A DNA stretch of 64,000 bases, taken from an uncultured Chloroflexia bacterium. Its GTDB lineage: Bacteria > Chloroflexota > Limnocylindria > Limnocylindrales > CSP1-4. A program made the position numbers and the translations under genes. Where the stretch lies: positions 72,747 through 136,746 of the forward strand of contig CAWBMK010000007.1 of the NCBI GenBank assembly GCA_963789905.1, read 5' to 3'. This document shows, piece by piece, positions 20,209 to 36,486 of this stretch (positions are counted from its first letter, which is position 1; each line of letters begins with the position of its first letter). Below the pieces are notes generated by a model, which saw only the letters and a list, made by a program, of their open reading frames with translations, was not told the origin of the DNA and ran no database searches.

Positions 20209-20457
20209 ATGTGCAGAAGCATCAAGCAGCTCCGCCGCCCCGAAGAGGCGGCCACGACCGGCGAGATCGAGGCCGCCGCCCGCCAGTTCGTGCGAAAGGT
20301 CAGCGGCTATCGCGTCCCATCTCGGGCGAACGAGGATGCTTTCGAGGCCGCGATCGCCGACGTCGCGGGCAGCGCTCAGCGACTGCTCGAGGCCATCGGC
20401 GTGTCCGTCGAGGAGGGGCCCGATCGCTGGGTCCCATCGGCCGCTCGGGCTCGATGA
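20209..20457 (+). CDS. DUF2277-like small protein
   Basis: MCRSIKQLRRPEEAATTGEIEAAARQFVRKVSGYRVPS... matches conserved small actinobacterial proteins. ATG at 20209. Confidence 0.5.
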   Translation: MCRSIKQLRRPEEAATTGEIEAAARQFVRKVSGYRVPSRANEDAFEAAIADVAGSAQRLLEAIGVSVEEGPDRWVPSAARAR

Positions 20458-20638
20458 CGATCGACGCCGTCGCGACCGCCTGGTGGTCGCGCGACGGGCT
20501 CGATGGCGGACCCCCGATGGCGCCCGTCGCCGAGGGCGACATCGTCGCTCTCCTGTGGGCAGGCGGGTACCTCCGGGCGATGTCGTCACGCCATTGCCTC
20601 CGCGAGCCCGCTGGGTCCATCTTCCCGAAGCGCTGACG

Positions 20639-21490
20639 ATGGTCGCCATCCCGCCGCGGCAGGCCGGCCGGGCGCAGGTCATACGCGTCCGCGGTCGGCG
20701 CGTCGAGGGCTTGGAGGATCGGCTGGCCGGCGAGGAACCGCTCGAGATCCGGGCGGCCGGCCCGGATCAGGAGAGTGTCGCCGTCGCTGTCACGATGCGG
20801 ACGCCAGGCAACGAGGCCGAGCTCGCGGTCGGATTCCTGCGGACCGAGGGCCTCATCGACGGACCTGCAGATGTCGCGGACATCAGCTTCGGCGACCCGT
20901 CTCGAGACGCTCAACCGGATGACACGGTGCTCGTTCACCTGACCCGACCCTTCGATGCGTCGGTCGTCGCCGAGCGACACTTTATCGCCACGGCATCGTG
21001 CGGGATCTGCGGCAAGGCCTCGATCGACGAGATCGCCGTCCGGTGCGCCCCGATCCCTTCCGGGCCGATGGTCGATCAGGCGATCGTCCTCGCTCTCCCG
21101 GAGCGACTGCGCGAGGCACAGGCGGTCTTTGAAGCCACTGGTGGGCTTCACGCCGCGGCGCTGTTCACCCCGCAGGGCGAGCTCATTGCGGCCCGCGAGG
21201 ATATCGGCCGCCACAACGCCCTCGACAAGCTCATCGGCTCCCAGCTCATGGCGGGAGCCCTGCCGCTCCACGATCGGGTCGTGCTGCTGAGCGGTCGGAT
21301 CGGGTTCGAGCTCGTTCAGAAGGCGGCGGTCGCAGGTGTCCCGATCTTGTGCGCGGTCGGGGCGCCGTCGGATCTCGCGGTCGAGACGGGCCGGCGCCTC
21401 GGGGTCACCCTTGTCGGCTTCCTCCGCGGCGACGCGTTCAACGTTTACACCCACCCAGATCGGATCGCTCTCGGTGGTAACCCCGCATAA
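20639..21490 (+). CDS. fdhD: Formate dehydrogenase accessory sulfurtransferase FdhD
   Basis: CGICGK...GRHNALDKLIG, which are the FdhD catalytic Cys and signature. Start at MVAIPP (ATG 20639), immediately after an upstream small-ORF stop. Confidence 0.85.
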   Translation: MVAIPPRQAGRAQVIRVRGRRVEGLEDRLAGEEPLEIRAAGPDQESVAVAVTMRTPGNEAELAVGFLRTEGLIDGPADVADISFGDPSRDAQPDDTVLVHLTRPFDASVVAERHFIATASCGICGKASIDEIAVRCAPIPSGPMVDQAIVLALPERLREAQAVFEATGGLHAAALFTPQGELIAAREDIGRHNALDKLIGSQLMAGALPLHDRVVLLSGRIGFELVQKAAVAGVPILCAVGAPSDLAVETGRRLGVTLVGFLRGDAFNVYTHPDRIALGGNPA

Positions 21491-21715: not shown

Positions 21716-23035
21716 TCAGGCGGGGTGGAGCGCTCGCCACATGTCGATTGACCACTGCCAATCGCCGACATCCTGGAACGCGATCCGGATGGCGGCGCCG
21801 CGTCCACGGACGGCCACGTAGCCCTCGAGGACGCCGACCTCGACGCCCGAGCTGCCGTCGGTGCTGATCTTCGCCCGCCCGAGGATCGGTCCGTCCTGGC
21901 GGGTGATGATGTCGCGCCCCAGATGGGAGGCGACCTGGTCGAGGAAGTCCGAGGCCGGCATGGGCCCGCGATCCGTCCCGGTCACGACACCCGCCAGGGT
22001 GATCGTGCGGCCCGCGTCGCTGCCGGTCCATTCCTCGGCCGTCCGGACGTCGCTGAACGAACCGGGCAGAGGTAGCGCCCAGCCCTCGTGGACGATCGTC
22101 ACCTGCCCTCGCCGATAGCCGATCGGCTCTCTCTCGCCGCCCTCTGCGGCCGCCTTCGCGGCGCGTGCCTCGACGTCGGGCGCGACGGCGTCGTGGATGC
22201 CCCGGAGCTTGAGGAGCTCGCCCCACTCACGCCACGGCCATGGCAGCTTCGTGTCGAGAGCGACGCCGTGTTTCAGCGTCTGGAGGACCTCGTCCTGGAC
22301 CCGGCGCTCGGCCGGTGTCACCGGCCCCCGCCAGCGGACATCACACCACATGAGGCAGAGCGCCCTGTTGAGCATGTAGCGAGCGTCGGTCGCATCGGCC
22401 CACCAGGGCACGATGTCGATGGCCGTCGGGACCTCGCTGAGGGCGCGCTCGAGCCATCGATCGTCGCGCGGTCCGAGTGGCGTCGCGATGGCACCTGGGA
22501 CCTCGATCCGAAGGTCGGCCGGCAGGCCGATGAGCATCCCGCCGGCGCCGAGTCGTCGGGCGTCCCGGGCGCCGACGAGAGTTGAGCCGAGCCAGGCAAG
22601 GTGTGCCCGCTCGACCGTCGGCCGATCGACACTGACCTTGCCATCGACGATGGGATGGACGTCGCTCGTCGTCCACTCGAGATCGAGCTCGAGCGCCAAT
22701 CGCTCGGCGACGTGGGCGAGGAAGCGCTGGTAGCCCGGGCCGACGCCCGCCGTTTCACCCTCGAGGGCGATGATGCCCTCGTCGTCGGCGATCGCGACGA
22801 GCGGAGGAGCGACCGGGTGCAGCCCGACGGCGAGCCTCGACTCACCAGAGGCGAGCCGCGACGCTTCGGACGACCGAATGGTGTCCCCGTACTCGGCATC
22901 GAGCCATGCCTTCGCCTCCGCGAGCAGCTTCTCGCCGTCTCGAGGCTTGCGGGCGATGCCGCGCTTGGATCTCTGGATGCCGATGCCACGCTTGGACGCC
23001 TGGCCGCTGACGCGGAATGTGGTAGACGCGCTCAT
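21716..23035 (-). CDS. Conserved hypothetical protein (439 aa), co-directional and downstream of the formate dehydrogenase genes
   Basis: Long ORF with coding-like composition and no recognisable catalytic motif. The N-terminus has a duplicated SKRGIxxxR element. Confidence 0.5.
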   Translation of the reverse strand: MSASTTFRVSGQASKRGIGIQRSKRGIARKPRDGEKLLAEAKAWLDAEYGDTIRSSEASRLASGESRLAVGLHPVAPPLVAIADDEGIIALEGETAGVGPGYQRFLAHVAERLALELDLEWTTSDVHPIVDGKVSVDRPTVERAHLAWLGSTLVGARDARRLGAGGMLIGLPADLRIEVPGAIATPLGPRDDRWLERALSEVPTAIDIVPWWADATDARYMLNRALCLMWCDVRWRGPVTPAERRVQDEVLQTLKHGVALDTKLPWPWREWGELLKLRGIHDAVAPDVEARAAKAAAEGGEREPIGYRRGQVTIVHEGWALPLPGSFSDVRTAEEWTGSDAGRTITLAGVVTGTDRGPMPASDFLDQVASHLGRDIITRQDGPILGRAKISTDGSSGVEVGVLEGYVAVRGRGAAIRIAFQDVGDWQWSIDMWRALHPA

Positions 23036-23139: not shown

Positions 23140-24255
23140 TCAGGGCCCGCGGCCGCCTTCGACGAACTGCCATCCGAAGCGCCCTTTGATGCACAGGTGA
23201 CCGTCCGTCACCGAGTGGTCCATCGGCGAGGTCACCTTGACGATCCGGCCGTCCTGGGCGTGGAGCTCGAGGTTGCAGCCGACCCCGCAATAGGGACAGA
23301 TCGTCGTGGTCTCGGTCTGCGCGCTCTCGTCCCACGTGCCCGCTGCCCGCATCTCGTGCTCACGACTGAACATGAGCGCGCCCGTCGGACAGACGCCGAT
23401 GCAATTGCCGCAGTAGACGCAGGCCGAGTCGGGCAGTGGGACGGCCTGCTCGGTCGAGATTCGGGCGTCGAAGCCGCGCCCGGCGACGGCGATCGCGAAC
23501 GTGTTCTGGGCGTCGACCCCGCAGGCCTCGACGCACTTGTAGCAGAGGATGCACTTCGAGTAGTCGCGGACGTAAAGCTCGTTGTCGACCTTGACAGGCT
23601 GGGCGACCGTCGCCGCGACATCGCCGGCTGTGCCGTGGTGCTGGCCGGTGACGCGGCCGTCGCGCTCGCCGGCAGCCGTGGGCTCAGAAGCCTCGCCGTA
23701 CCGCGAGGGGTCGGCTCCATATCGCTCCATCCAGGCCGCGATGGAGCCGTCCGGCTCGCGTGGTCCGGCGAGCGAGAGGTCGACGGATGAGCCGAGGAAT
23801 TCGAGAACGACCTTGCGAGAGAGCGCGACGCGATCCGACTCGGTCTGGATCTCCATCCCCGGCTCGACCTTGCGGGAACAGGCGGGCACCAGAACGCGCG
23901 AGCCGGTCACCTCGACGACGCAGACGCGACAGACGTTGACCGGGGTGAGGTTCTCGAGGTAGCAGAGCGTCGGCAGATCGCCGCCCGTCACACGGACCGC
24001 CTCGAGGATCGTCGAGCCCTCGGGTACGGAGACGGCCCGGCCGTCGATCGTGACCTCGACCATCGCGGCGTGGTCCGGATGAGGGGCGAATGGCGCAAGC
24101 GGTGTACGGGGCTGGCCGACGAACCAGACCGGCATCTCGTCCCACCCATCCCTGGGTGTCGGTACCCAGTTGCCCGGCACCGGGCCGGCATGCTCCGGCT
24201 GGTCCTCGGGTCCGAGGTGCTCCAGGTGCTTGCGGGGCTCGCTGTGCTCGCTCAT
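23140..24255 (-). CDS. Formate dehydrogenase alpha subunit, N-terminal Fe-S module only (NuoG-like 2Fe-2S + 4Fe-4S domains + MopB N-terminal 4Fe-4S motif)
   Basis: 2Fe-2S ferredoxin fold (TLCYLENLTPVNVCRVC), two 4Fe-4S ferredoxin motifs (CILCYKCVEAC, CVYCGNCIGVCP) and the MopB FS0 motif CPYCGVGCN...GHLCIKGRFGW. It then ends. The ATG at 24255 overlaps the stop of the upstream gene as ATGA. Confidence 0.8.
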   Translation of the reverse strand: MSEHSEPRKHLEHLGPEDQPEHAGPVPGNWVPTPRDGWDEMPVWFVGQPRTPLAPFAPHPDHAAMVEVTIDGRAVSVPEGSTILEAVRVTGGDLPTLCYLENLTPVNVCRVCVVEVTGSRVLVPACSRKVEPGMEIQTESDRVALSRKVVLEFLGSSVDLSLAGPREPDGSIAAWMERYGADPSRYGEASEPTAAGERDGRVTGQHHGTAGDVAATVAQPVKVDNELYVRDYSKCILCYKCVEACGVDAQNTFAIAVAGRGFDARISTEQAVPLPDSACVYCGNCIGVCPTGALMFSREHEMRAAGTWDESAQTETTTICPYCGVGCNLELHAQDGRIVKVTSPMDHSVTDGHLCIKGRFGWQFVEGGRGP

Positions 24256-26123
24256 GCCACGACCATGCCTTCGCGGACAGCCGATTCGATGGCCGCCGAT
24301 GCCGTCTGGCCCAGGCCGCAGATCGAGGCGTCGCGCATCGTCTGGCCGATCTCCGCGAGAAGGCGCATATCCGAAGCCCGGTCGCCGATGGGCAGGTCGG
24401 CCAGCAGCCGGGCCAGCAGCTCCTCCTGGCGGACCGTGCCGACCCGGCAGGGCACGCATTGGCCACACGATTCGTCGCGGAAGAACGCTGCGATCCGACG
24501 GAGTGCGTCGAGGATGTCGGCGCGCTCGTCATACACCAGGATCACGCCGGAGCCGAGGGACGCCCCGACGGCTCGCGTGCCCTCGAACGTCAGCGGCAGG
24601 TCGAGGTTGTCGGGGCCGACGAACGTTCCGGCCGCTCCGCCCAGGAGGACCGCCTGCAGCGCCCGGCCATTCGCGACGCCGCCGGCCATGGCGATGAGGT
24701 CGCCGAGGGTCGCCCCGAACGGGACCTCGAAGAGGCCCGGTCGAGCGACGTTGCCGGACAGGCAGAAGAGCTTGACCCCGCTCGATCCGGCCGTCCCGCG
24801 GCGCGCGTATGCCGCCCCACCCTCGCGCATGATCAGGGGCACGTTGACGAGCGTCTCGACGTTGTTGATGACCGTCGGTTTGCCGAAGAGGCCGTGAGTC
24901 ACCGGGAACGGCGGCTTGTTGCGGGGCTCACCGCGCCTGCCCTCGATCGAGTTGAAGAGCGCGGTTTCCTCGCCGCAGATGTAGGCGCCGGCGCCGCGCC
25001 GGATCTCGATGTCGAAGGCGAACCCTGCGCCCAGGACGTCCGCTCCGAGCAGTCCAGCGGTACGGCAGGCGTCGATTGCGGCCGCCATCGTAGCGGTCGC
25101 GGCCGGGTACTCCGCACGGATGTAGATGTAGCCGTGCTCCGACCCAGTGGCGAACGCGCCGATCGTCATTCCCTCGATGACGGCGAACGGGTCGCCCTCC
25201 ATGAGCAGGCGATCCTTGAACGTCCCGGGCTCCGACTCGTCGGCGTTGCAGACGAGGTAGTGCGGGGTGTCGGGCTGACCTGCCACCGCCTCCCACTTGC
25301 GACCTGTCGGAAAGGCCGCCCCGCCTCGCCCGACGAGGTGCGAGGTCGTGACCTCTGCGATCGTCGCCGCCGTGCCGAGCTCAATGGCCCGTTGGAGCCC
25401 GGCGTAGCCGCCATCTTGCCGGTAGGCGTCGAGGTCGGTCGGCCCGATGCGTCCGATGCGGCCGATGAGGCGTAGATCGGCCGCGGCCGCCGAGTCGACC
25501 TGCGGCACCGATGCACGCAGCTCGTCTCGCGTCGGGAGGGCGTCGCCTGGAACGAGCTCGAGGCGGCGGATGATGCCCGCCGCGTCGATCGGCCCGGCCA
25601 CCAGCTCAACGGCTTCCTCGCCGGCGATCGTGAACAGGGCGACCGGGGCACGCTCGCACATCCCGAGGCAGGGGCTGCGATGCCACGTCACGGCTCCTTC
25701 GTGGACCGGCTGGCCCTCTGGGCCGAGCGAACGCTCCAGCGCGGCCGCAGTCTCCTCGGCGCCGGCCAACCGACAGGCCAGATCGTCGCACACATGGGCC
25801 ACGGTCGGCGGCTGGGGAGTCGTCGAGAGGAGGGCGTAGAAGGTGGCCACGCCGTAGGCCTCGGCTGGCGGGACCGACAGCCGCTTGCAGATGTAGTTGA
25901 GGGCGGGCTGGCTGATATGGCCGAAGCGAGCCTGGATCGCGCGAAGGGCTGGCAGCAGCAGGTCGCGGCGCGCCCGTGCCGCGTGACCGCCGTAGGCGAC
26001 GTGCCCTTCCGTGCGCGCATCGCGCTGACCGCCCACCCAGCCACTCTCGGGCGGTCCGACGACGGCGTCGACGGCTGCCCGCTCGGCGGCCGAGGCGAGC
26101 GGCCCGATGACGTGGAGATCCAT
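24252..26123 (-). CDS. NAD(+)-dependent formate dehydrogenase beta/gamma fusion (NuoE-like 2Fe-2S domain fused to NuoF-like NADH/FMN/4Fe-4S subunit)
   Basis: N-terminal NuoE-like motifs (ALNYICKRLSVPPAEAYGVATFYALL...CDDLAC...CLGMCERAP). Then NuoF motifs (GRGGAAFPTGRKWE, FMN site, C-terminal CGQCVPCR 4Fe-4S). Confidence 0.85.
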   Translation of the reverse strand: MDLHVIGPLASAAERAAVDAVVGPPESGWVGGQRDARTEGHVAYGGHAARARRDLLLPALRAIQARFGHISQPALNYICKRLSVPPAEAYGVATFYALLSTTPQPPTVAHVCDDLACRLAGAEETAAALERSLGPEGQPVHEGAVTWHRSPCLGMCERAPVALFTIAGEEAVELVAGPIDAAGIIRRLELVPGDALPTRDELRASVPQVDSAAAADLRLIGRIGRIGPTDLDAYRQDGGYAGLQRAIELGTAATIAEVTTSHLVGRGGAAFPTGRKWEAVAGQPDTPHYLVCNADESEPGTFKDRLLMEGDPFAVIEGMTIGAFATGSEHGYIYIRAEYPAATATMAAAIDACRTAGLLGADVLGAGFAFDIEIRRGAGAYICGEETALFNSIEGRRGEPRNKPPFPVTHGLFGKPTVINNVETLVNVPLIMREGGAAYARRGTAGSSGVKLFCLSGNVARPGLFEVPFGATLGDLIAMAGGVANGRALQAVLLGGAAGTFVGPDNLDLPLTFEGTRAVGASLGSGVILVYDERADILDALRRIAAFFRDESCGQCVPCRVGTVRQEELLARLLADLPIGDRASDMRLLAEIGQTMRDASICGLGQTASAAIESAVREGMVVA

Positions 26124-26154
26124 CCCGCCGAGTGTAGTCTGCTGCCGAGGTTGG

Positions 26155-27267
26155 TCAGATGAACTGGCTGAGGGCTCGCTGGAGGAGGAACAGGCCGATC
26201 GGCAGGACGATCGCCGACACGAGGGCTCCGAGGGTGCCCGGCCGCCACGGCAGTGTCGGGAGCCTGTCGACGAGGTCGCGCTCCATCACGAGGACGCCTA
26301 GCGCATCGTGCATCCCGGCCGCCGCCGTCATATCACCTCGGTCAACCGCCGCGTGGATCGCCGCGATCGTCGCCTCGACCCGCAGTCCCACCTCGCCCTG
26401 GAGTCGCCGCTTCTCAGCGATGATCCGCTTCTGCATTCCACGGAGCGGCAGAACGAATACGGCCATAGCGGCCACGATACCGCCGCCGAGGTACAAGAAG
26501 AAGAACACGGCTCCCAGGCTCGTCGACAGCAACCCGAGAGTCAGGAAGGTTGGAAGAATGAAGACGAGGGCGATAACGATGGCCGTCCTCGACGTCAGGA
26601 TCGAGAAGGCATACAGCGGTGCGGGCCGAAAGAGATCCACGCGGGTAGCTCGCGAGTGTGTCCGGCCCACCTCTCGAAGCTGACGGAACGAGTGGAGGAC
26701 GAGGACCAGGATGAGGCTTCCGAAAAAGACCTCGCTCACATACCTGAACAGCATGCCAAGCGGCGACAAACCGACGACCTGGGAACCGACCGGATCGGCG
26801 AGGTAGTAGATCGGCGTCGTAATAGCCGTGAAGAGGAGGAGGGCCGCGGCTGGGCGGGCTGGAGCAACGGTCAGCACGTAGCGAAGGCGCGCGACCTCCG
26901 CATCGGTCGCAGCGAGTACCGGCCTGAACGTGTCGAGGGCGGTCCCTGCGATATCCGCGAGATAGCCCATCAGCCAGAGTGTCAGGGGCAGGAAGACGGC
27001 CCAGAACGCTTGTCCAGCAAGATAGACCGGGTCGCTGTTGCTCTGGAGGCCGGACGGGCCCAGCAAGCTCAGAACCACCGAGATCGCCGCGATGGCGATG
27101 TAAGCGAGCCACGTGGGGCCGGGCAGCCGCTCGATCCAGTTGATGAGCAGGTTCACCCAGCTCGGCCCGTACGGCCGCTCGTCGCCCGAAAGATGCTGGC
27201 TCGTCGCGGTCGCTGCCGTGCTGGACCCGGTCGCGAAGTCGGTGGCCGATGAGGCCTCGGTCGCCAT
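26155..27267 (-). CDS. Polytopic integral membrane protein of unknown function, embedded in the formate dehydrogenase operon
   Basis: 370 aa with about 9-10 hydrophobic helices. GC content is visibly lower than in the flanking genes. Confidence 0.55.
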   Translation of the reverse strand: MATEASSATDFATGSSTAATATSQHLSGDERPYGPSWVNLLINWIERLPGPTWLAYIAIAAISVVLSLLGPSGLQSNSDPVYLAGQAFWAVFLPLTLWLMGYLADIAGTALDTFRPVLAATDAEVARLRYVLTVAPARPAAALLLFTAITTPIYYLADPVGSQVVGLSPLGMLFRYVSEVFFGSLILVLVLHSFRQLREVGRTHSRATRVDLFRPAPLYAFSILTSRTAIVIALVFILPTFLTLGLLSTSLGAVFFFLYLGGGIVAAMAVFVLPLRGMQKRIIAEKRRLQGEVGLRVEATIAAIHAAVDRGDMTAAAGMHDALGVLVMERDLVDRLPTLPWRPGTLGALVSAIVLPIGLFLLQRALSQFI

Positions 27268-27285
27268 CGCGGGCGATCGTAGCAG

Positions 27286-29199
27286 TCAGGCGACAGGTGT
27301 CGAGAGCTTCTCGATGCGGATGGCGGTCGCCTTGAACTCGGCCGTTCCCGACTTCGGGTCGGTGGCGTCGATCGTCAGGAGGTTCGTCGCCACGTCGTCC
27401 TGGAAGTGCAGGGTCATGAATGTGAGACCTGGCCGCAGGGATTCATCGATCCTGATGGGGACATTCAGCTCGCCCCGGCGTGAGCGGACATGAACGACCT
27501 CCCCGTCGCTGAGGTCATACGTCAGCGCGTCCTCGGGGCTGATGTCGAGCGATTCGCCTCGCCGCAGCGGCGATGTGTAGCCGGCCGTCTGGACGCCGGT
27601 GTTGAAGGAGTCGAGTCGCCGGCCGGTGGTGAGGCGGATCGGGAACTCGTCGGTCAGCCGATCGACCGGCGGATCGTGTTCGACGGGCATGAACGGTGCC
27701 GGAGCGCCGACGCGCGGTTGTGCCCACAGCCGGGAGTGGATGTACAGCTCGCCCGGGTGGGTCTCGTCCCAGCACGGCCAATGGATGCCGCCGAGCTCGT
27801 CGAGGCGTCGGTAGCTCATCCCGGCGTGGACCGGGGAGAGCGATCGGACCTCGTCCCAGACCCTTTCTGCGACCGGCTCGCCCCAGTCGTGGCCCATCCG
27901 GCGGGCGACCTCGAACACGATCCAGAGGTCATCGCGTGCCTCGCCCGGCGGGTCGATCGCCTTGCGCACCCGCTGGACCCGTCGCTCGCTGCTGGTCACC
28001 GTCCCCTCGGTCTCGGCGAACGAGGCTGCCGACGGCAGGACGACATCGGCCAGCGCGGCCGTCTTGGTCAGGAACAGGTCCTGGACGACGAGGGCCTCGA
28101 GACCGCCAAGGAGCTCGATTGCCGTGGCCTGGTCCGCCTCCGACTGGACCGGGTTCTCGCCGACGCAGTAGATCGCCCGGACCTCGCCGGTCTGCATGCC
28201 GTGGAACATCGCCGATAACGAGCGACCCCGGCGCGGCGGGATCGTCACGCCCCAGGCCGCCTCGAATTTCGCTCGCGCGGCGTCGTTCTCGACGTGCTGG
28301 AAGCCGGGCAGCCGGTCTGGCAGGGCGCCCATGTCGCCGCCCCCCTGGACGTTGTTCTGGCCGCGCAGCGGCTGCAGACCGCTTCCGTAGCGGCCGACGT
28401 GACCGGTCAGCAGCGACAACGAGATCAGGGCCAGGACGTTGTCGACCGCGTTGTGATGCTCGGTGATGCCCAGGGTCCAGCAGAGCTGGGCGGACTTGGC
28501 CGTCGCATACGCGTGCGCCAACTGGCGGATCGCTTCAGCGGGCACGCCCGTCTCGCGCTCCGCGTACTCAAGGGTGTACTTCTCGACGCCCTGGCGGTAG
28601 AGGTCGAAGCCGATCGTCGCGTTGTCGATGAACGCCCGGTTCTCGAGGCCGGCGGCGATGATCTCGCGGCCCACCGCGTTGGCCAGGGCGATGTCCGAAC
28701 CCACGTCCAGGCCGAGCCACAGGTCGGCCCACTCCGCGCTTGCCGTCCGGCGCGGATCGACCGCATACAGGCGAGCCCCGTTGTGGATCCCCTTGAGGAC
28801 ATGGTGGAAGAAGATGGGGTGAGCTTCGCGAGCGTTGCTACCCCACAAGATGATGAGGTCGGTCTCCTCGACCTCCCGGTATGAGCTGGTCCCGCCGCCA
28901 GCCCCGAACACGGTCGCCAGACCGGCGACAGAGGGTGCGTGTCAGGTGCGGTTGCAGCTGTCGATGTTGTTGCTGCCGATGACCGCGCGGCCGAACTTCT
29001 GCGTCGCGAAGTTCAGCTCGTTGGTGGCCTTCGAGCAGCTGAAGAGCCCGAACGCTCCGGGTCCGTGCCGGTCCACGACGCTCGAGAAGAGCTCCGCGGT
29101 CCGGTCCAGGGCCTCGGCCCAGCTCGCCCGCCGGAGATCGCCGGTCTTGCCGCCGACTCTGACGAGCGGGTGGGTGAGTCGGGCATAGGCCTGTGCCAT
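27286..29199 (-). CDS. fdhA: Formate dehydrogenase alpha subunit, catalytic molybdopterin (MopB) portion; selenocysteine-containing (in-frame TGA at 28942-28944)
   Basis: Two ORF-track entries (28942..29670 and 27286..28911) are in the same frame, separated only by TGA. Reading through gives ...GSNNIDSCNRT-U-HAPSVAGLATVFGAGGG..., matching E. coli FdhF ...GTNNVDCCARV-U-HGPSVAGL. Start at MAQAYARLTHPLV (ATG 29197-29199, GAGGA RBS). Confidence 0.85.
28913..28929 (-). other. SECIS-like hairpin downstream of the Sec UGA
   Basis: mRNA GUCGCC-GGUCU-GGCGAC is a perfect 6-bp stem with a GGUC-containing apical loop, starting 12 nt after the UGA, as in E. coli fdhF. Confidence 0.5.
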
Positions 29200-29322
29200 G
29201 CTCGATCCTCGACTCGATGGCGATGTGTACGCCACGCTCCCGAGTGTATCTCCGGGTTGTGGCATACGATATTGGCCCGCACCCGCGCGCTTCGAGCACC
29301 AACGGAACCAGGAAGGTCGGAC

Positions 29323-29574
29323 ATGCCGCTCTACCTCGATACACATCACCACGTCGAGGGCCTGACAGCCGAGGCGGTCGCCGGTGCCCATGCCGCCGAT
29401 CTCGGAGTCCAGGGGAAATACGACGTGCGCTACCTGCGGTACTGGTTCGATGAGGCGACCGGCAAGGTCTTCTGCCTCGTCGAGGCGCCCTCCGCGGAAG
29501 CTGCCATCCAGGTCCATCGCGAGGCTCACGGCCTCCTGGCGGACGAGATCACCGAGGTCAGAGAGGGGATCTGA
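29323..29574 (+). CDS. DUF4242 (SCO4226-like) small protein
   Basis: 83 aa MPLYLDTHHHVEGLTAEAVAGAHAADL...RYLRYWFDEATGKVFCLVEAPSAEAA. ATG 29323 with a GGAAGG RBS. Divergent from fdhA. Confidence 0.6.
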   Translation: MPLYLDTHHHVEGLTAEAVAGAHAADLGVQGKYDVRYLRYWFDEATGKVFCLVEAPSAEAAIQVHREAHGLLADEITEVREGI

Positions 29575-32332
29575 CCTCCAGGTCGACCGCGGGCGCGAGA
29601 AGGGCGATCGCCTCATCGAGCCCGGTCGACAGTCCGCCCTCCCAGGCAACGCCGAATGCCGCCGCGCCAAGGCTCTCGGTGAGGTCGGCGACTAGCCGAT
29701 CGTGTTCGGCCCGCGCGCCGACCTGGCGGGTTGCGCCGATCTCGAGGCGAAGCGCCTCGGCCGCGCCGAGGAGTCGTGCAGCCAGTCGCGGGTCAGTGGC
29801 CGCCACCGTTATCGCCAGTCGCTCGAGCGCCCTGACCGAGCCGGGTTTGTCGCCCAGCGTGCGCCGCATCTCGAGGCCCTCGCGATGCAGGGCGATCGCC
29901 TGTGTCGTCTCGCCGCGACTTGCCTCCGCATCGGCCAGGAGCATGAGCATCCGAGCGACACCGCGGCCGTCACCGATCGACCTATAGAGCGTCAGCGCTC
30001 GGGTGAGGATCTCTTCAGCCGCCGCAGGATCGCCGCTCGCGTGGACTGTCGCCCCCTGTTGGCCAAGGGCGTGCGCCTCGCCCCAGATGTCGCCCTCAGC
30101 ACGGAAGATCTCGGCCGCCTCCTCGAACGACCGAAACGCGCCCTCGTGGTCGCCCCGTCCCTCGGCAACACTGGCGAGATTCATGAGCTGGAAGGCCACG
30201 CCACGCCAATCGGACACCGACCGGGCGAGAGCGAGACCTTCCTCGTACAGCGCGACGGCGCGTTCCGAGTCGCCTTGCTGGACGCACAGGCTCGCAAGAT
30301 TGCTGAGGGCGGACGCGATGGCCAGGGGATTGCCGATCGCGCGCTGGGTGTCGACGCAGCGCTCCAGATAACGCATCGCCCCCTGTGGGTCGCCCCGCAG
30401 CCCCGCGATGACGGCCGCTCCCGTCAGTGCCGTGGCCCGCACCTCGCTGGCATCGCCCGCGTCGGCTTCCACTGCCCTGGCAAGCCAGGTGCTCGCTTCG
30501 GCGAGGGCGCCCCGGATCTCCCAATAGCGCCACAGGCCGGCCGCCATTCGAACCAGCGCATCACCCGACGATGGGTCAGACGCGCTCCAGTCGAGCGCCG
30601 CCCCGAGATTGGCACGCTCGCGATCGAACAAAGCGATCCACTCGGTCGGATCTGAGCCCCGGAAGAAGTCCGGCTTCGCTCGTTCGACGAGCGCGACGTA
30701 CCAGTCGCGGTGCCGACTCTGCGCCTCGCCGGCCTCCTCGCTCTCGACGAGCTTCTCGCGGGCGTATTCCCGAACAGTCTCGAGGAGTCGGTATCGGCCG
30801 CCGCCGCTCTCGACGTCAAGGATGACGAGCGACTTGTCGACAAGCCTGGACAGCAGATCCAGCACCTCGTGCGACTCGATGTCGGCGCCTCGACAGACGG
30901 CCTCGGCAGCTTCGAGCGTGAACGAACCCGCGAAAACGGCAAGCCGGCGCAGGATCGCCTTCTCCTGATCCGTCAGCAGGTCGTGGCTCCAATCCATGGC
31001 GGCACGGAGCGTTTGCTGGCGCTGAAGCGCGATCCTGCTGCCTCCGGTCAGGAGGCGGAACCGGTCATCCAGCCGGGCTGCGATCTGGTCGACGGGCATC
31101 GAGCGCACCCGAGCCGCCGCAAGCTCGAGCGCCAACGGGATGCCATCGAGGCTGCGGCAGATGCGCACGACGGCCGACGCACTCCGTTGGTCGATGGTGA
31201 ACGTGGGGTCGACGACCCGGGCACGATCGGCGAACAGGGCGACGGCCTCGTAGGTGAGCAGATTTCCGCTTGGCTGCCGGTCTGCGGCGTCAGGCAGCGA
31301 TAGCGACGGGACCCGATAGATCGTCTCGCCTGGGATGCCGAACGCCTCGCGGCTGGTGGCGATGATGCGGAGGTTCGGGCAGCCGCGCAGGAGCGCGTCG
31401 GCCAGCCGGGCCGCGGCGTCGACGAGGTGCTCGCAGTCGTCGAGGACGAGGAGGGTCGTCCGCGGCCGAAGATGGCTGAGGATCGAATTGATCGGCGCCG
31501 CGCCCGGTGGAGTGGCGATGCCAACGCTCGTCGCTACAGCTTGGGGGACGAGGCTCGGGTCGGTGATCGTGCCGAGCTCGACGACCCACACGCCATCCTG
31601 ATAGCGGTCGAGAAGATCGGCCGCCACATGTAGCGCCAGCCTCGTCTTCCCGATACCACCGGCTCCGGTCAGGGTCAGCATGGGCGACCCGGCAAGGAGC
31701 TCCCGGACCTGCACGGTCTCGGCGTCCCGGCCGACGAACCTCGTCAGGAGGCGTGGCAGATTGTTGGGAAGGGTGTCGAGTGACCGAAGGACGGGGAAGT
31801 CTTCGCGAAGTCCGTCTGCGGCGACCTGGTAGAGATGCTCGGGCCTGGCCAGGTCCTTGAGCCTGTGCTCGCCGAGGTCGATGAGTCGGACGCCATCCGG
31901 CACCCCGTGCCTGATGAGCTCGGCCGTCGTCTGGGAGATCAGGATCTGGCCTCCGTGACCCGCGGCCGCGATGCGCGCCGCTCGGTGGACGTCGATGCCG
32001 ACGTAGCCCGCAGCCGCCGTCTGCGGCTCGCCGGTATGGATACCCATCCGAACCAGGATCCTGACGTCGTCGGGCCAGGTGTGGGTTGCAACCGAACGTT
32101 GGGCCTCGAGCGTCGCCTCGAGAGCCGAGCGGGCACTCGCGAACGAATAGAAGAACCCGTCGCCGGCGACGTCGATCTCGCTCCCCTCATGGGCCCGGAA
32201 TGCCTGGCGCAGCAGGCGATTGTGGTCGTCGACGACTGCAGGCCAGCGATCCTTGAGGGCCGCCACGAGGGTCGTCGAGCCCTCGATGTCCGTGAAGAGA
32301 AACGTCACCGTCCCTTGGGAGTGGTCGGTCAT
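29558..32332 (-). CDS. Adenylate/guanylate cyclase domain - P-loop NTPase (NB-ARC/AAA) - TPR multi-domain regulator
   Basis: N-terminal class III cyclase motifs (VTFLFTDIEGST...GDGFFYSF). Then a Walker A GAGGIGKTRLA and C-terminal TPR repeats. ATG at 32330-32332 overlaps the selD stop. Confidence 0.8.
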   Translation of the reverse strand: MTDHSQGTVTFLFTDIEGSTTLVAALKDRWPAVVDDHNRLLRQAFRAHEGSEIDVAGDGFFYSFASARSALEATLEAQRSVATHTWPDDVRILVRMGIHTGEPQTAAAGYVGIDVHRAARIAAAGHGGQILISQTTAELIRHGVPDGVRLIDLGEHRLKDLARPEHLYQVAADGLREDFPVLRSLDTLPNNLPRLLTRFVGRDAETVQVRELLAGSPMLTLTGAGGIGKTRLALHVAADLLDRYQDGVWVVELGTITDPSLVPQAVATSVGIATPPGAAPINSILSHLRPRTTLLVLDDCEHLVDAAARLADALLRGCPNLRIIATSREAFGIPGETIYRVPSLSLPDAADRQPSGNLLTYEAVALFADRARVVDPTFTIDQRSASAVVRICRSLDGIPLALELAAARVRSMPVDQIAARLDDRFRLLTGGSRIALQRQQTLRAAMDWSHDLLTDQEKAILRRLAVFAGSFTLEAAEAVCRGADIESHEVLDLLSRLVDKSLVILDVESGGGRYRLLETVREYAREKLVESEEAGEAQSRHRDWYVALVERAKPDFFRGSDPTEWIALFDRERANLGAALDWSASDPSSGDALVRMAAGLWRYWEIRGALAEASTWLARAVEADAGDASEVRATALTGAAVIAGLRGDPQGAMRYLERCVDTQRAIGNPLAIASALSNLASLCVQQGDSERAVALYEEGLALARSVSDWRGVAFQLMNLASVAEGRGDHEGAFRSFEEAAEIFRAEGDIWGEAHALGQQGATVHASGDPAAAEEILTRALTLYRSIGDGRGVARMLMLLADAEASRGETTQAIALHREGLEMRRTLGDKPGSVRALERLAITVAATDPRLAARLLGAAEALRLEIGATRQVGARAEHDRLVADLTESLGAAAFGVAWEGGLSTGLDEAIALLAPAVDLEVRSPL

Positions 32333-33423
32333 CTCGTTGCCGCGATCAGGGCGATCCCTCGGCCGGTCTCGACGTGGCCGATCCACCAATGAGAGACGCC
32401 GCGGAAGGTGAGGTCCTGTCCAACGGCGTCGGCCGCGTCCTCCGGGACGGCCGCAAGGAGGCCGCCCGAGGTCTGCGGGTCGTGGGCGAGGACGACGCGT
32501 TCGGGGGGGACGTCCCGGTCGATCGTCACCGCATCGGCCACGGACCGGCGGTTATGGGCGGCACCCCCGGTCTCGACGCCGGCCCGCGCGTTGTCGAGCG
32601 CGCCGGCGAGGGCTGGCAGGCCGTCCGCCTCGATGACGAAGCGCGTCCGATTTCCGGCGCCGGCGTCGGTCCGGATCATCTCGGCGGCGTGGCCGAGCAG
32701 CCCGAAGCCGGTGACGTCGGTCGCGGCCCGGACGCCATGGGCCACGAGCACCTCCGAGGCCGCCCGGTTGAGGCGACGCATGGACTCGATGGCCCCGTCG
32801 AGGTCCTCGTCGGAGGTTCGACCCTGGCGCCGTCCGCTCACGAGGACGCCCGTGCCCAGGGGTTTCGTGAGCAGCAGGCGGTCTCCCGGTCGCGCGCCAC
32901 CCTTGCGCAGCAGACGGTCCGGATGGCCGGCGCCGACGACCGCCAAACCGTATTTTGGCTCCGGATCGCGGATCGTATGGCCACCGGCCAGGGTGCCCCC
33001 AGCCTCGCGGACGACGGAGGCCGCGCCATCGAAGATCGCGGCCATGGTCTCCCGGGGCAGATCCTCGGGCAGGGCGGCGATCGACAACGCGAACAGGACG
33101 CGGCCGCCCATGGCAAATATGTCGCTAACGGCGTTAGCCGCGGCGATCTCACCAAACGTCCGAGGGTCGTCGACGAGCGGTGGGAAGAAGTCGAGCGTCC
33201 CGATGATCGCCAGGTCGTCCGAGATGCGGTAGGCGGCGCCGTCATCGGGCGGATCCAGCCCGGCGATCATGTTTCGATCGCGATTCTCCCTATTCGTCGC
33301 ACCGAGCCCGGCGAGGGCCTCCGCGAGCAGATCGGCACCGAGCTTGGCCGCACATCCGCCGCAGTCCGTCAGGTCGGTGAGGCGGATGTCGATCGGTGTT
33401 GCGGGAGGCTCGAGCCGTGTCAT
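32329..33423 (-). CDS. selD: Selenide, water dikinase (selenophosphate synthetase), Cys-type
   Basis: IRLTDLTDCGGCAAKLGADLL...AISDIFAMGG...MTDVTGFGLLGH...DPQTSGGLL aligns along its full length with E. coli SelD. There is a Cys (not Sec) at the active-site position. Confidence 0.9.
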   Translation of the reverse strand: MTRLEPPATPIDIRLTDLTDCGGCAAKLGADLLAEALAGLGATNRENRDRNMIAGLDPPDDGAAYRISDDLAIIGTLDFFPPLVDDPRTFGEIAAANAVSDIFAMGGRVLFALSIAALPEDLPRETMAAIFDGAASVVREAGGTLAGGHTIRDPEPKYGLAVVGAGHPDRLLRKGGARPGDRLLLTKPLGTGVLVSGRRQGRTSDEDLDGAIESMRRLNRAASEVLVAHGVRAATDVTGFGLLGHAAEMIRTDAGAGNRTRFVIEADGLPALAGALDNARAGVETGGAAHNRRSVADAVTIDRDVPPERVVLAHDPQTSGGLLAAVPEDAADAVGQDLTFRGVSHWWIGHVETGRGIALIAATR

Positions 33424-33462
33424 GAGCCGCGATGATAGTGCGCCCGGCTATCCTCGAGGGTC

Positions 33463-34284
33463 ATGAGCATCGGGCGCACTGCGACAGGCATCGTCTTCGA
33501 GGTCGCCGGCCCGCCCACCCTCGAGGTCGCGCCCGTCGTTCTCCTCCATGCCGGCGTCGCCGATCGACGGATGTGGGACGTCGTGTGGGGCGATCTGACG
33601 ATGGATCGGCCGATCCTTCGGCTCGACCTCCGGGGTTTTGGTGAGTCGATAGCGAAGCCGGTGGGCCTGCTCCTCCATCACGCCGACGTGCTGGCGACGA
33701 TGGATTCCCTCGACATCCAACACGCTCACGTCGTGGGAGCGTCGATGGGAGCGGGCGTCGCGGTCGAGCTGGCGCTGGCGGCTCCAGACCGGGTCGTGTC
33801 TCTGCTGCTCGTCGGCCCGGGTGGCTCGCTCATCGAGCATCCGTCCGAATGGCTCAGTGCGGCCTGGCGGGCCGAGGTCGATGCCCTCGACGTGGGTGAC
33901 ACCGATGCCGCCGTGGAGGTCAACCTGCGGGCCTGGGTCGATGGGCCGGCGCGCGAGGCTCGCGAGGTCGACCCCGACGTCAGGGCATTCGTCGGCGAGA
34001 TGCAACGGCGCATCTTCGAGGTCACCGCGGACTGGGATGACGTCGAGGAAGACGAGCTCGATCCGGCGGCCGTCGACCGTCTCGCCGACATCGCCGCGCC
34101 CACGCTCGTCCTCGTAGGCGACGGCGACGTCGATACGATCCTCGAAGTCGCGGAGCGGGCGGCCGAGGAGATCCCCAATGTCCGCCTGGTGCGCTGGCCG
34201 GTCGTCGCCCACATGGCGTCGATGGAGCGCGCCGAGGAGTTCGTGAGCCTCGCCCGGGACTGGTTCGCGGCCAACGACAGCTGA
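33463..34284 (+). CDS. Alpha/beta hydrolase fold protein
   Basis: VVLLHAGVADRRMWD...GASMGAG nucleophile elbow. 273 aa. Confidence 0.7.
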   Translation: MSIGRTATGIVFEVAGPPTLEVAPVVLLHAGVADRRMWDVVWGDLTMDRPILRLDLRGFGESIAKPVGLLLHHADVLATMDSLDIQHAHVVGASMGAGVAVELALAAPDRVVSLLLVGPGGSLIEHPSEWLSAAWRAEVDALDVGDTDAAVEVNLRAWVDGPAREAREVDPDVRAFVGEMQRRIFEVTADWDDVEEDELDPAAVDRLADIAAPTLVLVGDGDVDTILEVAERAAEEIPNVRLVRWPVVAHMASMERAEEFVSLARDWFAANDS

Positions 34285-34317
34285 GGGCCGCAAAGCCCCG
34301 GCGATACCATCGCCGGC

Positions 34318-34414
34318 GGGAGCGGAGGGGTCCCGGTGGGTCCCCCGGTCTTCAAAACCGGTGACGCCGCGCTCGGCGTGGCGTGGTGGGTTCGACTCCC
34401 ATGCGCTCCCGCCA
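34318..34414 (+). tRNA. selC: tRNA-Sec (anticodon UCA)
   Basis: 97 nt with an acceptor stem GGGAGCG/CGCUCCC. The D arm is a 6-bp stem GGGUCC/GGGUCC (two G-U pairs) with a 4-nt loop CGGU, the tRNA-Sec hallmark. Anticodon arm CCGGU-CUUCAAA-ACCGG with UCA at 34352-34354. Long variable arm ACGCCG-CGCU-CGGCGU. T arm GUGGG-UUCGACU-CCCAU. Discriminator G and encoded CCA. Confidence 0.75.
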
Positions 34415-34512
34415 CGCGTCCCCTTGCGATCGAAGCACGGACGCAGGGTGACGCCGTCTCTATCGAGGGCTAGGCCCGACTACCCGCGACGCGGCCGGTC
34501 GGGGACGGCTGC

Positions 34513-34541
34513 TATAGTAGTCACCTAGGTAGTCACTGGAG
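34513..34541 (+). promoter_or_regulatory. Putative promoter/operator of the antitoxin-toxin operon
   Basis: TATAGT (-10-like) immediately followed by the direct repeat TAGTCACC-TAGG-TAGTCACT, then a GGAG RBS and ATG 34542. Confidence 0.35.
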
Positions 34542-34784
34542 ATGGCCGTGGCAGAGATCGGTATCAAGGAGCTCAAGGCCTTCGCTTCAGCGGTGATCGA
34601 GGACGTCGAGGGCGGCACCGCCTACGTCGTGACGAAGCGAGGACGCCCGGCGGCGGTACTTCTTCCGATCGACGAGGCTGAGGATCTCGTCCTCGCCAAC
34701 GCCGACGCGTACATCCGGATTCGCCGGCAAGGCCGGGCAGCCTACGCCAAGCGCCGGACGATCCCCCTGAGTGAGCTCGGCTGA
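34542..34784 (+). CDS. Type II antitoxin, Phd/YefM family
   Basis: 80 aa MAVAEIGIKELKAFASAVIEDVEGGTAYVVTKRGRPAAVLLPIDEAE, the Phd/YefM fold signature. Confidence 0.75.
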   Translation: MAVAEIGIKELKAFASAVIEDVEGGTAYVVTKRGRPAAVLLPIDEAEDLVLANADAYIRIRRQGRAAYAKRRTIPLSELG

Positions 34785-35076
34785 CGCTCCGTACGACGTC
34801 CAACTGGCGCCGGCGGCCGTTCGTGCGTTCCTGAAGCTCACGGCGATCGATCGAGGCCGGATCCGGCAGGCGCTCGAGGCCCTGGCCGGCACCGCCACCA
34901 GGAAAGGTCGCGGCGGGAAGGCAATCAAGACGATCCGGGGGACCGGCGATCGGTTTCACCGCCTCCGCGTCGGCGACTTTCGAATCATGTACGACCTCGT
35001 TGCCGAGGATCGAGTGGTACTCGTGTTGGGAATCGTCCACCGCTCCGACCTCGACCGCTGGCTCCGGAACCGCTGA
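34771..35076 (+). CDS. Type II toxin, RelE/ParE family
   Basis: GTG start overlapping the antitoxin 3' end. C-terminal RIMYDLVAEDRVVLVLGIVHRSD is typical of ParE/RelE. Confidence 0.7.
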   Translation: MSSADAPYDVQLAPAAVRAFLKLTAIDRGRIRQALEALAGTATRKGRGGKAIKTIRGTGDRFHRLRVGDFRIMYDLVAEDRVVLVLGIVHRSDLDRWLRNR

Positions 35077-35091
35077 TGCCTGATCTGGGCT

Positions 35092-36486
35092 GTGCGGTGT
35101 AACGTCCGCGAGATGGTCAGCGAGTCATCCCCGCGGCCCCCGGGCGTCGAGCGGTTGCTGAAGGCCGTGCGTCCGCTCGCCGGTCAGCGGGACGCCGACA
35201 TCCTCGTTCAGGCCACCCGGGCCGTCGTCGCGGACGAGCGCGATCGGCTTGCGCGGGGCGACGCACCCCGCCCGGTTGACGAACTCGCTGAGGCCGTTGT
35301 TGGTCGCCTTGACGCGGCGATGTCCGACGGATGGACGCCGATAATCAACGCTACCGGTGTGATCCTTCACACCAACCTGGGCCGGGCACCGTGGCCGGAC
35401 GCCGCCGTCGATGCCGCCCGGGCAGCGTCGGAGAATCTGTTCCTTGAGATGGACCGATCGTCGGGCCGGCGCGGGCCCCGATTCCGGGCTGCCGAGGAGC
35501 ACCTGATCGCCCTGACCGGGGCCGAGGATGCCCTCGTCACGAACAACAACGCGGCGGCAGTCGTGCTCGCCTGTCACCTTGCCGGTCGGCGTGGGATCGC
35601 CGTGGCCCGAGGCGAGCTCATCGAGATCGGCGGAGGAGTCCGGATCCCCGAGGTCGTTCGCCGCTCCGGTGCACGTCTCGTCGAGGTCGGCACGACCAAC
35701 AAGACCCGTGTGTCCGATTTCGAGGAGGTCCTCGCGGACGGTCGAGCTGCCGTCATCCTCCGGGTCCACGCCTCGAATTTCCGGATGAGTGGCTTCGTCG
35801 AAAGCCCCGACACGGCGGCGCTCGCCGCCATCGCGGCAGACCATGCCGCGATCGTCATCGACGACCTTGGCTCGGGTGCCCTGCTCGACACCGCGGCCTT
35901 CGGCCTGCCCCACGAACCGACGCCCATGGAACGGCTCCTGGCCGGGGCCGATCTCGTCACGTTCTCGGGCGACAAGCTCATCGGCGGGCCGCAGGCGGGC
36001 TTCATCGTCGGTCGGCGGGACCTCATCGCCCGGATCCGCAAGGACCCGCTGTCTCGGGCGATGCGACCGGACAAGGTGACGCTCGCCGCAGTCGCGGCCA
36101 CCCTGGCGATCTATGTCGCCGGAACGGCGACCCGGGAGATTCCAGTCTGGCGGATGATCGCCCAGTCGAGCGACGCGATCCGCGTCCGCGCGGAGTCGCT
36201 CTGTCGACGCCTCACGAAGCTCGGCCTTCCTGCCCTCCCGGTCCTTGTCGAGTCGACGATCGGCGGAGGCGCACTTCCTGAAGCGGTGCTTCCGTCGTGG
36301 GCGGTGGCTCTCTCGGACCCAAGCCCGGACCATCTGCTCGCGCGTCTCCGTGAGGGGATACCGGCCATCGTGGCGCGCATCGAGGCCGGCGCCGTCGTGC
36401 TCGACATGCGCACCGTCGACGAGCGGTGGGACGCCGAAGGTTCGCTGGCGGGTGCGCTGGTCCGCGCGCTGGGACGCGCTGGGTGA
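35092..36486 (+). CDS. selA: L-seryl-tRNA(Sec) selenium transferase
   Basis: VTNNNAAAVVLA...GELIEIGGGVRIPEV...FSGDKLIGGPQAGFIVGRRDLIARI aligns with E. coli SelA, including the PLP-Lys region (FSGDKL). Confidence 0.9.
   Translation: MRCNVREMVSESSPRPPGVERLLKAVRPLAGQRDADILVQATRAVVADERDRLARGDAPRPVDELAEAVVGRLDAAMSDGWTPIINATGVILHTNLGRAPWPDAAVDAARAASENLFLEMDRSSGRRGPRFRAAEEHLIALTGAEDALVTNNNAAAVVLACHLAGRRGIAVARGELIEIGGGVRIPEVVRRSGARLVEVGTTNKTRVSDFEEVLADGRAAVILRVHASNFRMSGFVESPDTAALAAIAADHAAIVIDDLGSGALLDTAAFGLPHEPTPMERLLAGADLVTFSGDKLIGGPQAGFIVGRRDLIARIRKDPLSRAMRPDKVTLAAVAATLAIYVAGTATREIPVWRMIAQSSDAIRVRAESLCRRLTKLGLPALPVLVESTIGGGALPEAVLPSWAVALSDPSPDHLLARLREGIPAIVARIEAGAVVLDMRTVDERWDAEGSLAGALVRALGRAG

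Follow-up and report, generated by a model that had tools for sequence, protein, structure and literature searches.

In the MopB enzymes that contain the [4Fe-4S] cluster FS0 (formate dehydrogenases, FDHs, and nitrate reductases), this cluster is treated as integral to the catalytic subunit. A locus of an uncultured Chloroflexia bacterium raises the question of whether it has to be. The locus lies in a stretch of 64,000 nucleotides of contig CAWBMK010000007.1 (assembly GCA_963789905.1), hereafter the window, and an initial annotation of this DNA had proposed that the alpha subunit of an FDH is encoded there by two separate genes in permuted order. Here we show that the alpha subunit is cut exactly after FS0 and that the cut and the gene order recur in a large family. 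With a probability of roughly 0.8 the locus encodes a cytoplasmic, NAD(P)+-linked, selenocysteine (Sec)-containing FDH with a Mo/W-bis-pyranopterin guanine dinucleotide (bisPGD) cofactor, made of three polypeptides, where such enzymes usually have two or three.

One alpha subunit on two genes

The minus strand carries all four genes of the locus, for the catalytic half, a membrane protein, a NuoE-NuoF fusion (gene nuoEF) and the Fe-S half:

29199..27286, minus strand: catalytic half of the FDH alpha subunit, 637 codons, one of them UGA
27267..26155, minus strand: multi-pass membrane protein of 370 amino acids, between the catalytic gene and nuoEF
26123..24252, minus strand: NuoE-NuoF fusion of 623 amino acids, diaphorase subunit (Pfam, NCBIfam)
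24255..24252, minus strand: ATGA, overlap of the NuoE-NuoF stop with the start of the Fe-S half (read from the sequence)
24255..23140, minus strand: Fe-S half of the FDH alpha subunit, 371 amino acids (Pfam, NCBIfam, structure alignments)
23313..23158, minus strand: FS0 [4Fe-4S] domain, residues 315-366 of the Fe-S half (PF04879, TIGR01591)

By Pfam, the Fe-S half carries a Fer2_4 domain at residues 64-140, ferredoxin-type Fer4 domains at about 230-294 (two 4Fe-4S sites) and a complete Molybdop_Fe4S4 domain at 315-366 (profile positions 3-54 of 55), with no Molybdopterin domain. It terminates 5 residues past the FS0 domain, the C-terminus reading HLCIKGRFGWQFVEGGRGP before the stop. The catalytic half, whose N-terminus is MAQAYARLTHPLVRVGG, contains a complete Molybdopterin domain (PF00384, residues 7-433, profile positions 1-352 of 353, 5e-63) and a Molydop_binding domain, the dinucleotide-binding cap (PF01568, residues 522-625, 6e-24), and no other Pfam domain. 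PF04879 (Molybdop_Fe4S4) found no Pfam match in it, and inspection of open reading frames (ORFs) and Pfam domains revealed no FS0-coding sequence hidden in frame 5' of 29199. The cut falls between PF04879 and PF00384.

The NCBIfam equivalog profile TIGR01591 (Fdh-alpha, 672 positions) is tiled by the two halves without gap or overlap, the junction lying between positions 49 and 50. Positions 1-49 fall on residues 318-366 of the Fe-S half (52.1 bits) and positions 50-672 on residues 4-629 of the catalytic half (645.3 bits); each half alone misses the cutoff of 666.25 bits and only the sum exceeds it. Residues 63-364 of the Fe-S half align to residues 22-302 of FdsA of Rhodobacter capsulatus (the FS0 part to about 255-302) and residues 7-631 of the catalytic half to FdsA 308-933, which puts the cut at about FdsA 302 to 308. 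The catalytic half likewise aligns to residues 61-689 of E. coli FdhF, its residue 7 corresponding to FdhF residue 61 (cut between 60 and 61), and a fused metagenomic relative of 911 amino acids (P0380) is tiled by the two halves at 9-276 and 281-905. The cut is exact and complementary, with no residue missing or duplicated. In a single-chain alpha subunit FS0 sits on the same polypeptide as MopB, which is not the case here: the HoxU/NuoG-like Fe-S region is homologous to FdsA 22-302, yet it is on a separate polypeptide from the catalytic domain. FS0 would be supplied in trans to the Mo/W site.

The initial annotation had anticipated much of this. It had assigned 2Fe-2S, 4Fe-4S and FS0 domains to the gene at 23140..24255, as Pfam confirms; it had placed the break at the boundary of FS0 and MopB, where Pfam, TIGR01591 and the structures also place it, with FS0 and the Mo/W site on different polypeptides (Pfam and TIGR01591); and it had recognised that the two stretches are contiguous in E. 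coli FdhF. Its start signals can be read in the sequence as well: a GAGGA ribosome-binding site ends 7 nucleotides (6 intervening bases) 5' of the ATG at 29199, and the ATG of the Fe-S gene overlaps the nuoEF stop as ATGA at 24255..24252, implying a putative translational coupling of the two.

A point absent from that annotation is that the catalytic gene carries an in-frame TGA, so that its frame is one gene only if the TGA is read as Sec. The elements that bear on this reading, among them a hairpin resembling a selenocysteine insertion sequence (SECIS), are as follows:

28944..28942, minus strand: in-frame TGA, putative Sec codon of the catalytic gene (position of FdhF Sec140)
28929..28913, minus strand: SECIS-like hairpin GUCGCC-GGUCU-GGCGAC (fold and covariation)
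33423..32329, minus strand: SelD (Pfam AIRS/AIRS_C)
34316..34414, plus strand: tRNA-Sec (ARAGORN)
35092..36486, plus strand: SelA (Pfam SelA)
36426..38315, plus strand: SelB (Pfam GTP_EFTU and SelB-wing_3)

The TGA lies inside SCNRT-TGA-HAPSVAGL. The active-site motif SCNRT-U-HAPSVAGL aligns to FdhF Sec140-His141, and the active-site Arg of PLRGQNNVQG (LQPLRGQNNVQG) to FdhF Arg333. All 57 related loci that cover the region have TGA in the same motif, with no Cys variant among them. In the predicted fold the hairpin begins 12 nucleotides 3' of the UGA. Across an alignment of 56 sequences it is paired in 99.1% of cells, the GGUCU loop is almost invariant, and compensatory changes are seen at 2 of the 6 pairs (8 cells; C-G to G-C and C-G to U-A), arising from synonymous or conservative codon changes. 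The whole-region fold has a z-score of -0.92, short of significance for a sequence so rich in GC, and the case for a SECIS-like hairpin therefore rests on covariation. tRNA-Sec, SelA, SelB and SelD are all encoded within 10 kb of the catalytic gene. Taken together, the evidence supports the reading of the catalytic gene as a selenoprotein gene.

Because the TGA leads gene callers to break up the catalytic gene, nearly all of its database homologues are fragments of about 542 residues. The only full-length call of the catalytic half in the databases (P0128, 645 amino acids, on an ENA contig of 2183 bp) was considered as a Cys variant and rejected, since it has Arg at the Sec position (CNRT-R-HAPS); this looks like a TGA-to-CGA/AGA substitution or a sequencing error. 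The selenocysteine island itself spans 32329..38315 and comprises selD (minus strand), an alpha/beta hydrolase gene (33463..34284, plus strand), tRNA-Sec, selA and selB (all plus strand), with selA and selB overlapping by about 60 nucleotides. The SelD of the window has Cys (TDCGGCAAK); in one related locus (L002) selD was called in two pieces (136 and 230 amino acids) and may itself be a Sec form.

Recurrence of the cut and of the gene order

The initial annotation had suggested comparative genomics of the locus. A scan of a species-representative genome set, with one genome per species, returned at least 596 matching stretches, and we compared 82 related loci, namely the best 80 of these stretches and two others. 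The best 80 loci show 60-79% amino-acid identity and come from metagenome-assembled genomes (MAGs) labelled as Chloroflexota (many of them Limnocylindrales), Acidobacteriota, Actinomycetota, Planctomycetota, Gemmatimonadota, Rokubacteria, Armatimonadota and Binatia. Overall the same layout is found in hundreds of genomes, mostly of soil-type bacteria, in at least eight phyla, and this recurrence marks it as a real variant and not an assembly error.

The cut itself is constant: the Fe-S ORF stops 0-36 codons past FS0 in 82 of 82 loci, and the 120 best matches to the Fe-S half (homologues of 70-86% identity) range in length from 306 to 422 amino acids, all of them with the same domain set and without MopB. 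The 2Fe-2S motif, two CxxCxxCxxxC motifs and the FS0 motif CxxCxxxC...CxK are present in all 83 sequences; all 16 cluster-ligand cysteines are kept and the reading frames are intact. The gene order is just as regular. In each of the 64 loci that carry all three genes, the catalytic gene, nuoEF and the Fe-S gene follow one another on one strand, bearing out an order permuted relative to the single polypeptide, as initially annotated from this one genome. The three are contiguous in 46 of these loci, typically with 0-36 nucleotides from the catalytic stop to the nuoEF start, and in 70 of 76 loci the Fe-S gene starts in frame at an [A/G/T]TG that shares bases with the nuoEF stop ([A/G/T]TGA).

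Could the two genes nevertheless result from misassembly, or be what is left of an fdsA gene in decay, alternatives that the initial annotation had itself named? All data come from assemblies, the splitting of the catalytic gene at TGA by gene callers gives it a pseudogene-like look, and the search for a full-length copy covered the 64,000 nucleotides of the window, in which there is no second alpha-subunit copy. Yet the same cut is found in 82 and the same order in 64 independent loci from many studies and phyla, and identities of 60-79% are accompanied by intact frames, by every cluster ligand, by conservation of the start/stop overlap and by covariation in the SECIS-like hairpin. Misassembly or decay is effectively refuted by these observations and we give it next to no credence. 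The split and the permuted order are the fixed architecture of a large family and not a peculiarity of one genome.

The predicted enzyme and its electron path

The cofactor sites of the three proteins can be compared with the electron path known from the electron cryo-microscopy structure of the R. capsulatus FDH, where the on-path chain runs from bis-molybdopterin guanine dinucleotide (bisMGD) through A1 (FS0), A2, A3, A5 (2Fe-2S) and B6 to flavin mononucleotide (FMN), and where the His-Cys3 cluster A4 lies off-path at the FdsA dimer interface (PMC7171172). The catalytic protein has the sites for Mo/W-bisPGD, Sec86, His87 and the conserved Arg. The Fe-S protein has FS0 (CPYCGVGC...HLCIKGRFG) with the pterin-facing Lys, two ferredoxin-type 4Fe-4S sites and one 2Fe-2S site. 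NuoE-NuoF adds the NuoF 4Fe-4S site (CGQCVPC...C), the FMN and NAD(H) motifs GAGAYICGEETAL and GRGGAAFPTGRKW, and the NuoE 2Fe-2S site in a thioredoxin-like domain; it matches PF01257, PF01512, PF10531 and PF10589 as well as nuoF_fam and nuoE_fam of NCBIfam, and its PDB relatives include the FDH beta subunits 6vw7_B, 7e5z_B and 6tg9_B.

The Fe-S protein thus retains A1, A2, A3 and A5 and is without A4, which corresponds to N5 of NuoG. The A4 motif HxxxCxxCxxxxxC is absent from 83 of 83 sequences, which have a linker with 0-1 Cys in its place (residues about 155-225; 23793..23583, minus strand). Where FdsA has HPLDCLTCAANGDC, the split family has SSVDLSLAGPREPDG, followed by about 30-50 extra residues. 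This linker carries an HH pair in 66 of the 83 sequences, and G-H-HH is invariant or nearly so in an alignment of 15 sequences. The wire would therefore be complete but divided otherwise, with the whole wire including FS0 predicted on one protein and the Mo/W site on another.

In the enzyme that we propose, formate would be oxidised at the Mo/W centre of the 637-amino-acid catalytic protein, with Sec86 as a ligand and with His87 and Arg. Electrons would exit via the pterin to FS0 on the C-terminus of the separate Fe-S protein, this module docking where the attached FS0 sits in FdhF (residues 1-60) and in FdsA. Within the Fe-S protein their route would continue over both ferredoxin-type [4Fe-4S] clusters to the [2Fe-2S] cluster and from there into the NuoE-NuoF fusion, where a [4Fe-4S] cluster and FMN would take them up for the reduction of NAD(P)+. 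From the sequences we infer the assembly as a heterotrimer and this path, as well as the acceptor (NAD+ or NADP+), the metal (Mo or W) and the direction of the reaction. Electron bifurcation was also considered and is unsupported: NuoF is without the extra C-terminal ferredoxin domain of HydB-type subunits, and since it ends at its own 4Fe-4S domain there is no sign of such a function.

Several points weigh against this picture. The complex is a prediction from sequence, and an AlphaFold2 model of the Fe-S half from a 15-sequence alignment was unusable (mean predicted local distance difference test score of 52). All compared genomes are MAGs, so that some taxonomic labels may be wrong. In the Chloroflexota/Limnocylindria-like subgroup to which the window belongs, 0.8-4.9 kb of variable, unrelated genes lie between the catalytic gene and nuoEF, so that the genes of this subgroup need not be co-transcribed. 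At a few loci the 3-8 kb upstream contain no catalytic gene, and in a Chthonomonadaceae MAG (L052) the Fe-S/FS0 gene stands alone at 9965..10975, with no nuoEF or catalytic gene within 10 kb. Its neighbours are genes for a glycosyltransferase, a glycoside hydrolase, a sugar kinase and a 56-kDa selenium-binding protein (SBP56).

The solitary Fe-S gene and the parting of the catalytic gene from the other two in Chloroflexota would also fit a different division of labour, in which NuoE-NuoF and the Fe-S protein form a self-contained NAD(P)H-linked module, the FS0-like cluster is vestigial or structural like N7, and the catalytic protein works with another partner or acceptor. Indeed the same domain persists in NuoG as a remnant, its cluster N7 lying off-path (PMC7171172). 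We consider this very unlikely, as the three genes are linked in all 64 loci that have them (contiguous in 46), none of the 83 sequences has lost the FS0 cysteines or the pterin-facing Lys (CIKGRFG), and the FDH-alpha profile is covered exactly by the two pieces together; moreover the catalytic protein would be left, by Pfam, without any cluster to take electrons from the pterin. The three-polypeptide enzyme with FS0 in trans remains our preferred reading.

The genes inserted between the catalytic gene and nuoEF differ from locus to locus: L001 has a toxin-antitoxin pair together with other genes, L002 a gene with a cyclase domain, and the window the membrane protein. The initial annotation had listed the order as catalytic half, membrane protein, NuoE-NuoF and Fe-S half, which holds in the window; the membrane protein, however, occurs in only three compared loci and is not a conserved part. 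The protein gave no Pfam or NCBIfam match. Its homologues occupy the same gap only in L001, with up to three copies, and L005 among the 82 loci. The family has 126 proteins, of which the few with a source name are from Chloroflexota/Chloroflexi MAGs, and three members that we examined have unrelated neighbours (glycosyltransferases; a cytochrome oxidase/bc cluster; miscellaneous genes). A role as the membrane anchor of the enzyme was rejected because the family sits in such unrelated neighbourhoods and is absent from 79 of the 82 loci. The membrane protein is a Chloroflexota-specific passenger and not a core subunit. The cyclase-domain protein in the gap of L002 (7224..8090) has 288 amino acids, and in the window an adenylate/guanylate cyclase-STAND NTPase-TPR protein of 943 amino acids (29558..32389, minus strand) lies between the FDH locus and selD. 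Cyclase-domain genes may thus be recurrently associated with this locus in Limnocylindria, in two cases only.

One further gene of the window has a known link to FDHs:

20336..21490, plus strand: FdhD, sulfurtransferase/maturation factor for FDH (PF02634, 4.3e-66)

It is convergent to the FDH genes and close to the operon in many related loci; 20336..21490 is its longest ORF and the true start is probably near 20636. About 100 nucleotides 3' of the Fe-S gene lies an ORF of 439 amino acids (21716..23035, minus strand); it matches no Pfam or NCBIfam model, and none of the 82 related loci has a homologue of it. Divergent from the catalytic gene is a small gene for a SCO4226-like "nickel-responsive" protein (29320..29574, plus strand). 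A promoter and terminator scan of the region found nothing above chance. The sole sigma-70-like match (TCGACA-16-TACGAT; 27303..27276, minus strand), barely above chance expectation, overlaps the end of the catalytic gene and sits just 5' of the membrane-protein gene.

Origin of the split and comparison with known systems

From an evolutionary point of view FdsA is thought to be a fusion of an Fe-S module like that of Fe-only hydrogenases with a cytoplasmic FDH (PMC10100899), and the two-gene state could be ancestral, an unfused precursor of FdsA-type enzymes. The catalytic half indeed matches FdhF-type proteins (E of 1e-141 to 5e-141) better than FdsA (E of 1e-120). But in an unfused precursor FS0 would be expected to reside on the catalytic protein, as in FdhF, and here it is on the Fe-S protein; the historical fusion joint lies before FS0 and the present cut after it, so that the locus is not simply the unfused ancestor. 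A tight family with 60-79% identity across phyla also fits recent spread better than an ancient relic. An ancestral split is therefore unlikely in our view, and it bears on origin only, leaving the proposed mechanism unchanged. More likely the split arose by secondary fission, in an FdsA-type gene that was fused beforehand. The order could have come about if nuoEF-fdsA was duplicated in tandem and the copies then lost opposite halves: with FS0 and everything ahead of it deleted from the first copy, and the MopB part from the second, the catalytic gene, nuoEF and the Fe-S gene would remain. Such high identity between phyla points to horizontal spread. Horizontal transfer has been proposed for a planctomycete fdhA-nuoEF operon, for which no split was noted (PMC4807772).

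We may speculate, tentatively and with considerable doubt, that the split and the permuted order are an adaptation to selenocysteine decoding. With the UGA gene first and without an Fe-S domain, abortive termination would yield a harmless peptide of 85 residues. The aborted product of a fused enzyme would in this scenario be a cluster-loaded protein of about 450 residues, which could dock on the diaphorase and poison the complex. In compact operons with gaps of 0-36 nucleotides, failed Sec insertion would cut the expression of nuoEF and the Fe-S gene by polarity, tying the output of the whole enzyme to selenium supply, and the selenoprotein would be the last to dock, onto a "wire with plug" that NuoEF and the Fe-S(FS0) protein had formed beforehand. 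Fused selenocysteine forms exist (P0369, P0387 and P0352, all ending just before the Sec position), so that the use of Sec does not require the split.

No description of a split FDH alpha subunit or of FS0 in trans was found in the full-text literature, most subscription journals lying outside the scope of the search. Four papers (PMC7325909, PMC12342949, PMC13397495 and PMC8808070) held nothing bearing on the split, and the mycobacterial FDH-O type of 1064 amino acids in PMC13449736 is irrelevant to it. The split and permuted FDH is apparently an undescribed variant. With FS0 on the electron-transfer subunit, the pterin-to-FS0 junction can be an interface between subunits, which may be of relevance for the design of modular CO2-reducing enzymes in which one catalytic module is plugged onto different wires. 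The enzyme is also easily missed or miscounted, because the UGA gene is cut by gene callers, the TIGR01591 score is a near miss (645 against 666 bits) and annotations name the Fe-S half "2Fe-2S binding protein", "YjgC" or "HndD". This would affect surveys of formate metabolism and of selenium use over at least 596 genome stretches in Acidobacteriota, Chloroflexota, Actinomycetota, Planctomycetota and other phyla.

Among known systems, the FdsABG(D) enzymes of R. capsulatus and Cupriavidus necator (PDB 6tg9, 6vw7) follow the same cofactor logic with homologous parts: a NuoF-like FMN subunit, a NuoE-like 2Fe-2S domain and an FdhD/FdsC-type maturation gene nearby are common to both. Their genes, however, run fdsG-fdsB-fdsA, where the split family has the catalytic gene first, then nuoEF and last the Fe-S gene; the split enzyme differs further in its divided alpha subunit, with the cut behind FS0, in the NuoE-NuoF fusion, in the absence of A4 and in having Sec in place of Cys. 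Fdh1AB (FoDH1) of Methylorubrum extorquens (PDB 7e5z, 7vw6; W) also has a NuoE-NuoF fusion as its beta subunit (7e5z_B, E of 1e-97), and its alpha subunit likewise combines a NuoG-like Fe-S region, FS0 and MopB, but in a single chain of 989-995 amino acids, and unlike the split enzyme it is not a selenoprotein.

On the side of the wire, HoxU of the NAD-reducing [NiFe] hydrogenase and the N-terminal part of NuoG share the 2Fe-2S and 4Fe-4S wire fold and a NuoF/NuoE-type diaphorase, the Fe-S half matching the NCBIfam models of HoxU at 2.9e-35 and of NuoG at 2.4e-37. Unlike the Fe-S half, HoxU is without an FS0-type domain, whereas NuoG keeps a cofactor-less MopB-like domain past N7, where the Fe-S half stops right after FS0. 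The Fe-S half was considered as a NuoG of complex I and rejected, since it ends 5 residues past FS0 and neighbours FDH genes and not nuoA-N.

On the catalytic side, formylmethanofuran dehydrogenase also has its MopB catalytic subunit in two chains, FwdB and FwdD, and is to our knowledge the only precedent for a divided subunit of this kind; FwdB is a weak match to the catalytic half. There the split detaches a C-terminal cap and leaves FS0 with the catalytic chain, whereas here the N-terminal FS0 is detached. In the Methanothermobacter wolfeii enzyme the MopB C-terminus is replaced by an additional subunit (PMC7171172). The best matches of the catalytic half are FdhF of E. coli (FDH-H) and FdhF of the hydrogen-dependent CO2 reductase (PDB 1aa6, 7qv7; E of 5e-141 and 3e-141), which share the Sec-His motif and the active-site Arg but, unlike the catalytic half, carry their own FS0 in residues 1-60. 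The split FDH is real, widespread and mechanistically interpretable and is not a new kind of system: as judged from its parts, it would function as a soluble FDH of the FdsABG/Fdh1AB kind, with a catalytic part nearest to the FdhF type.

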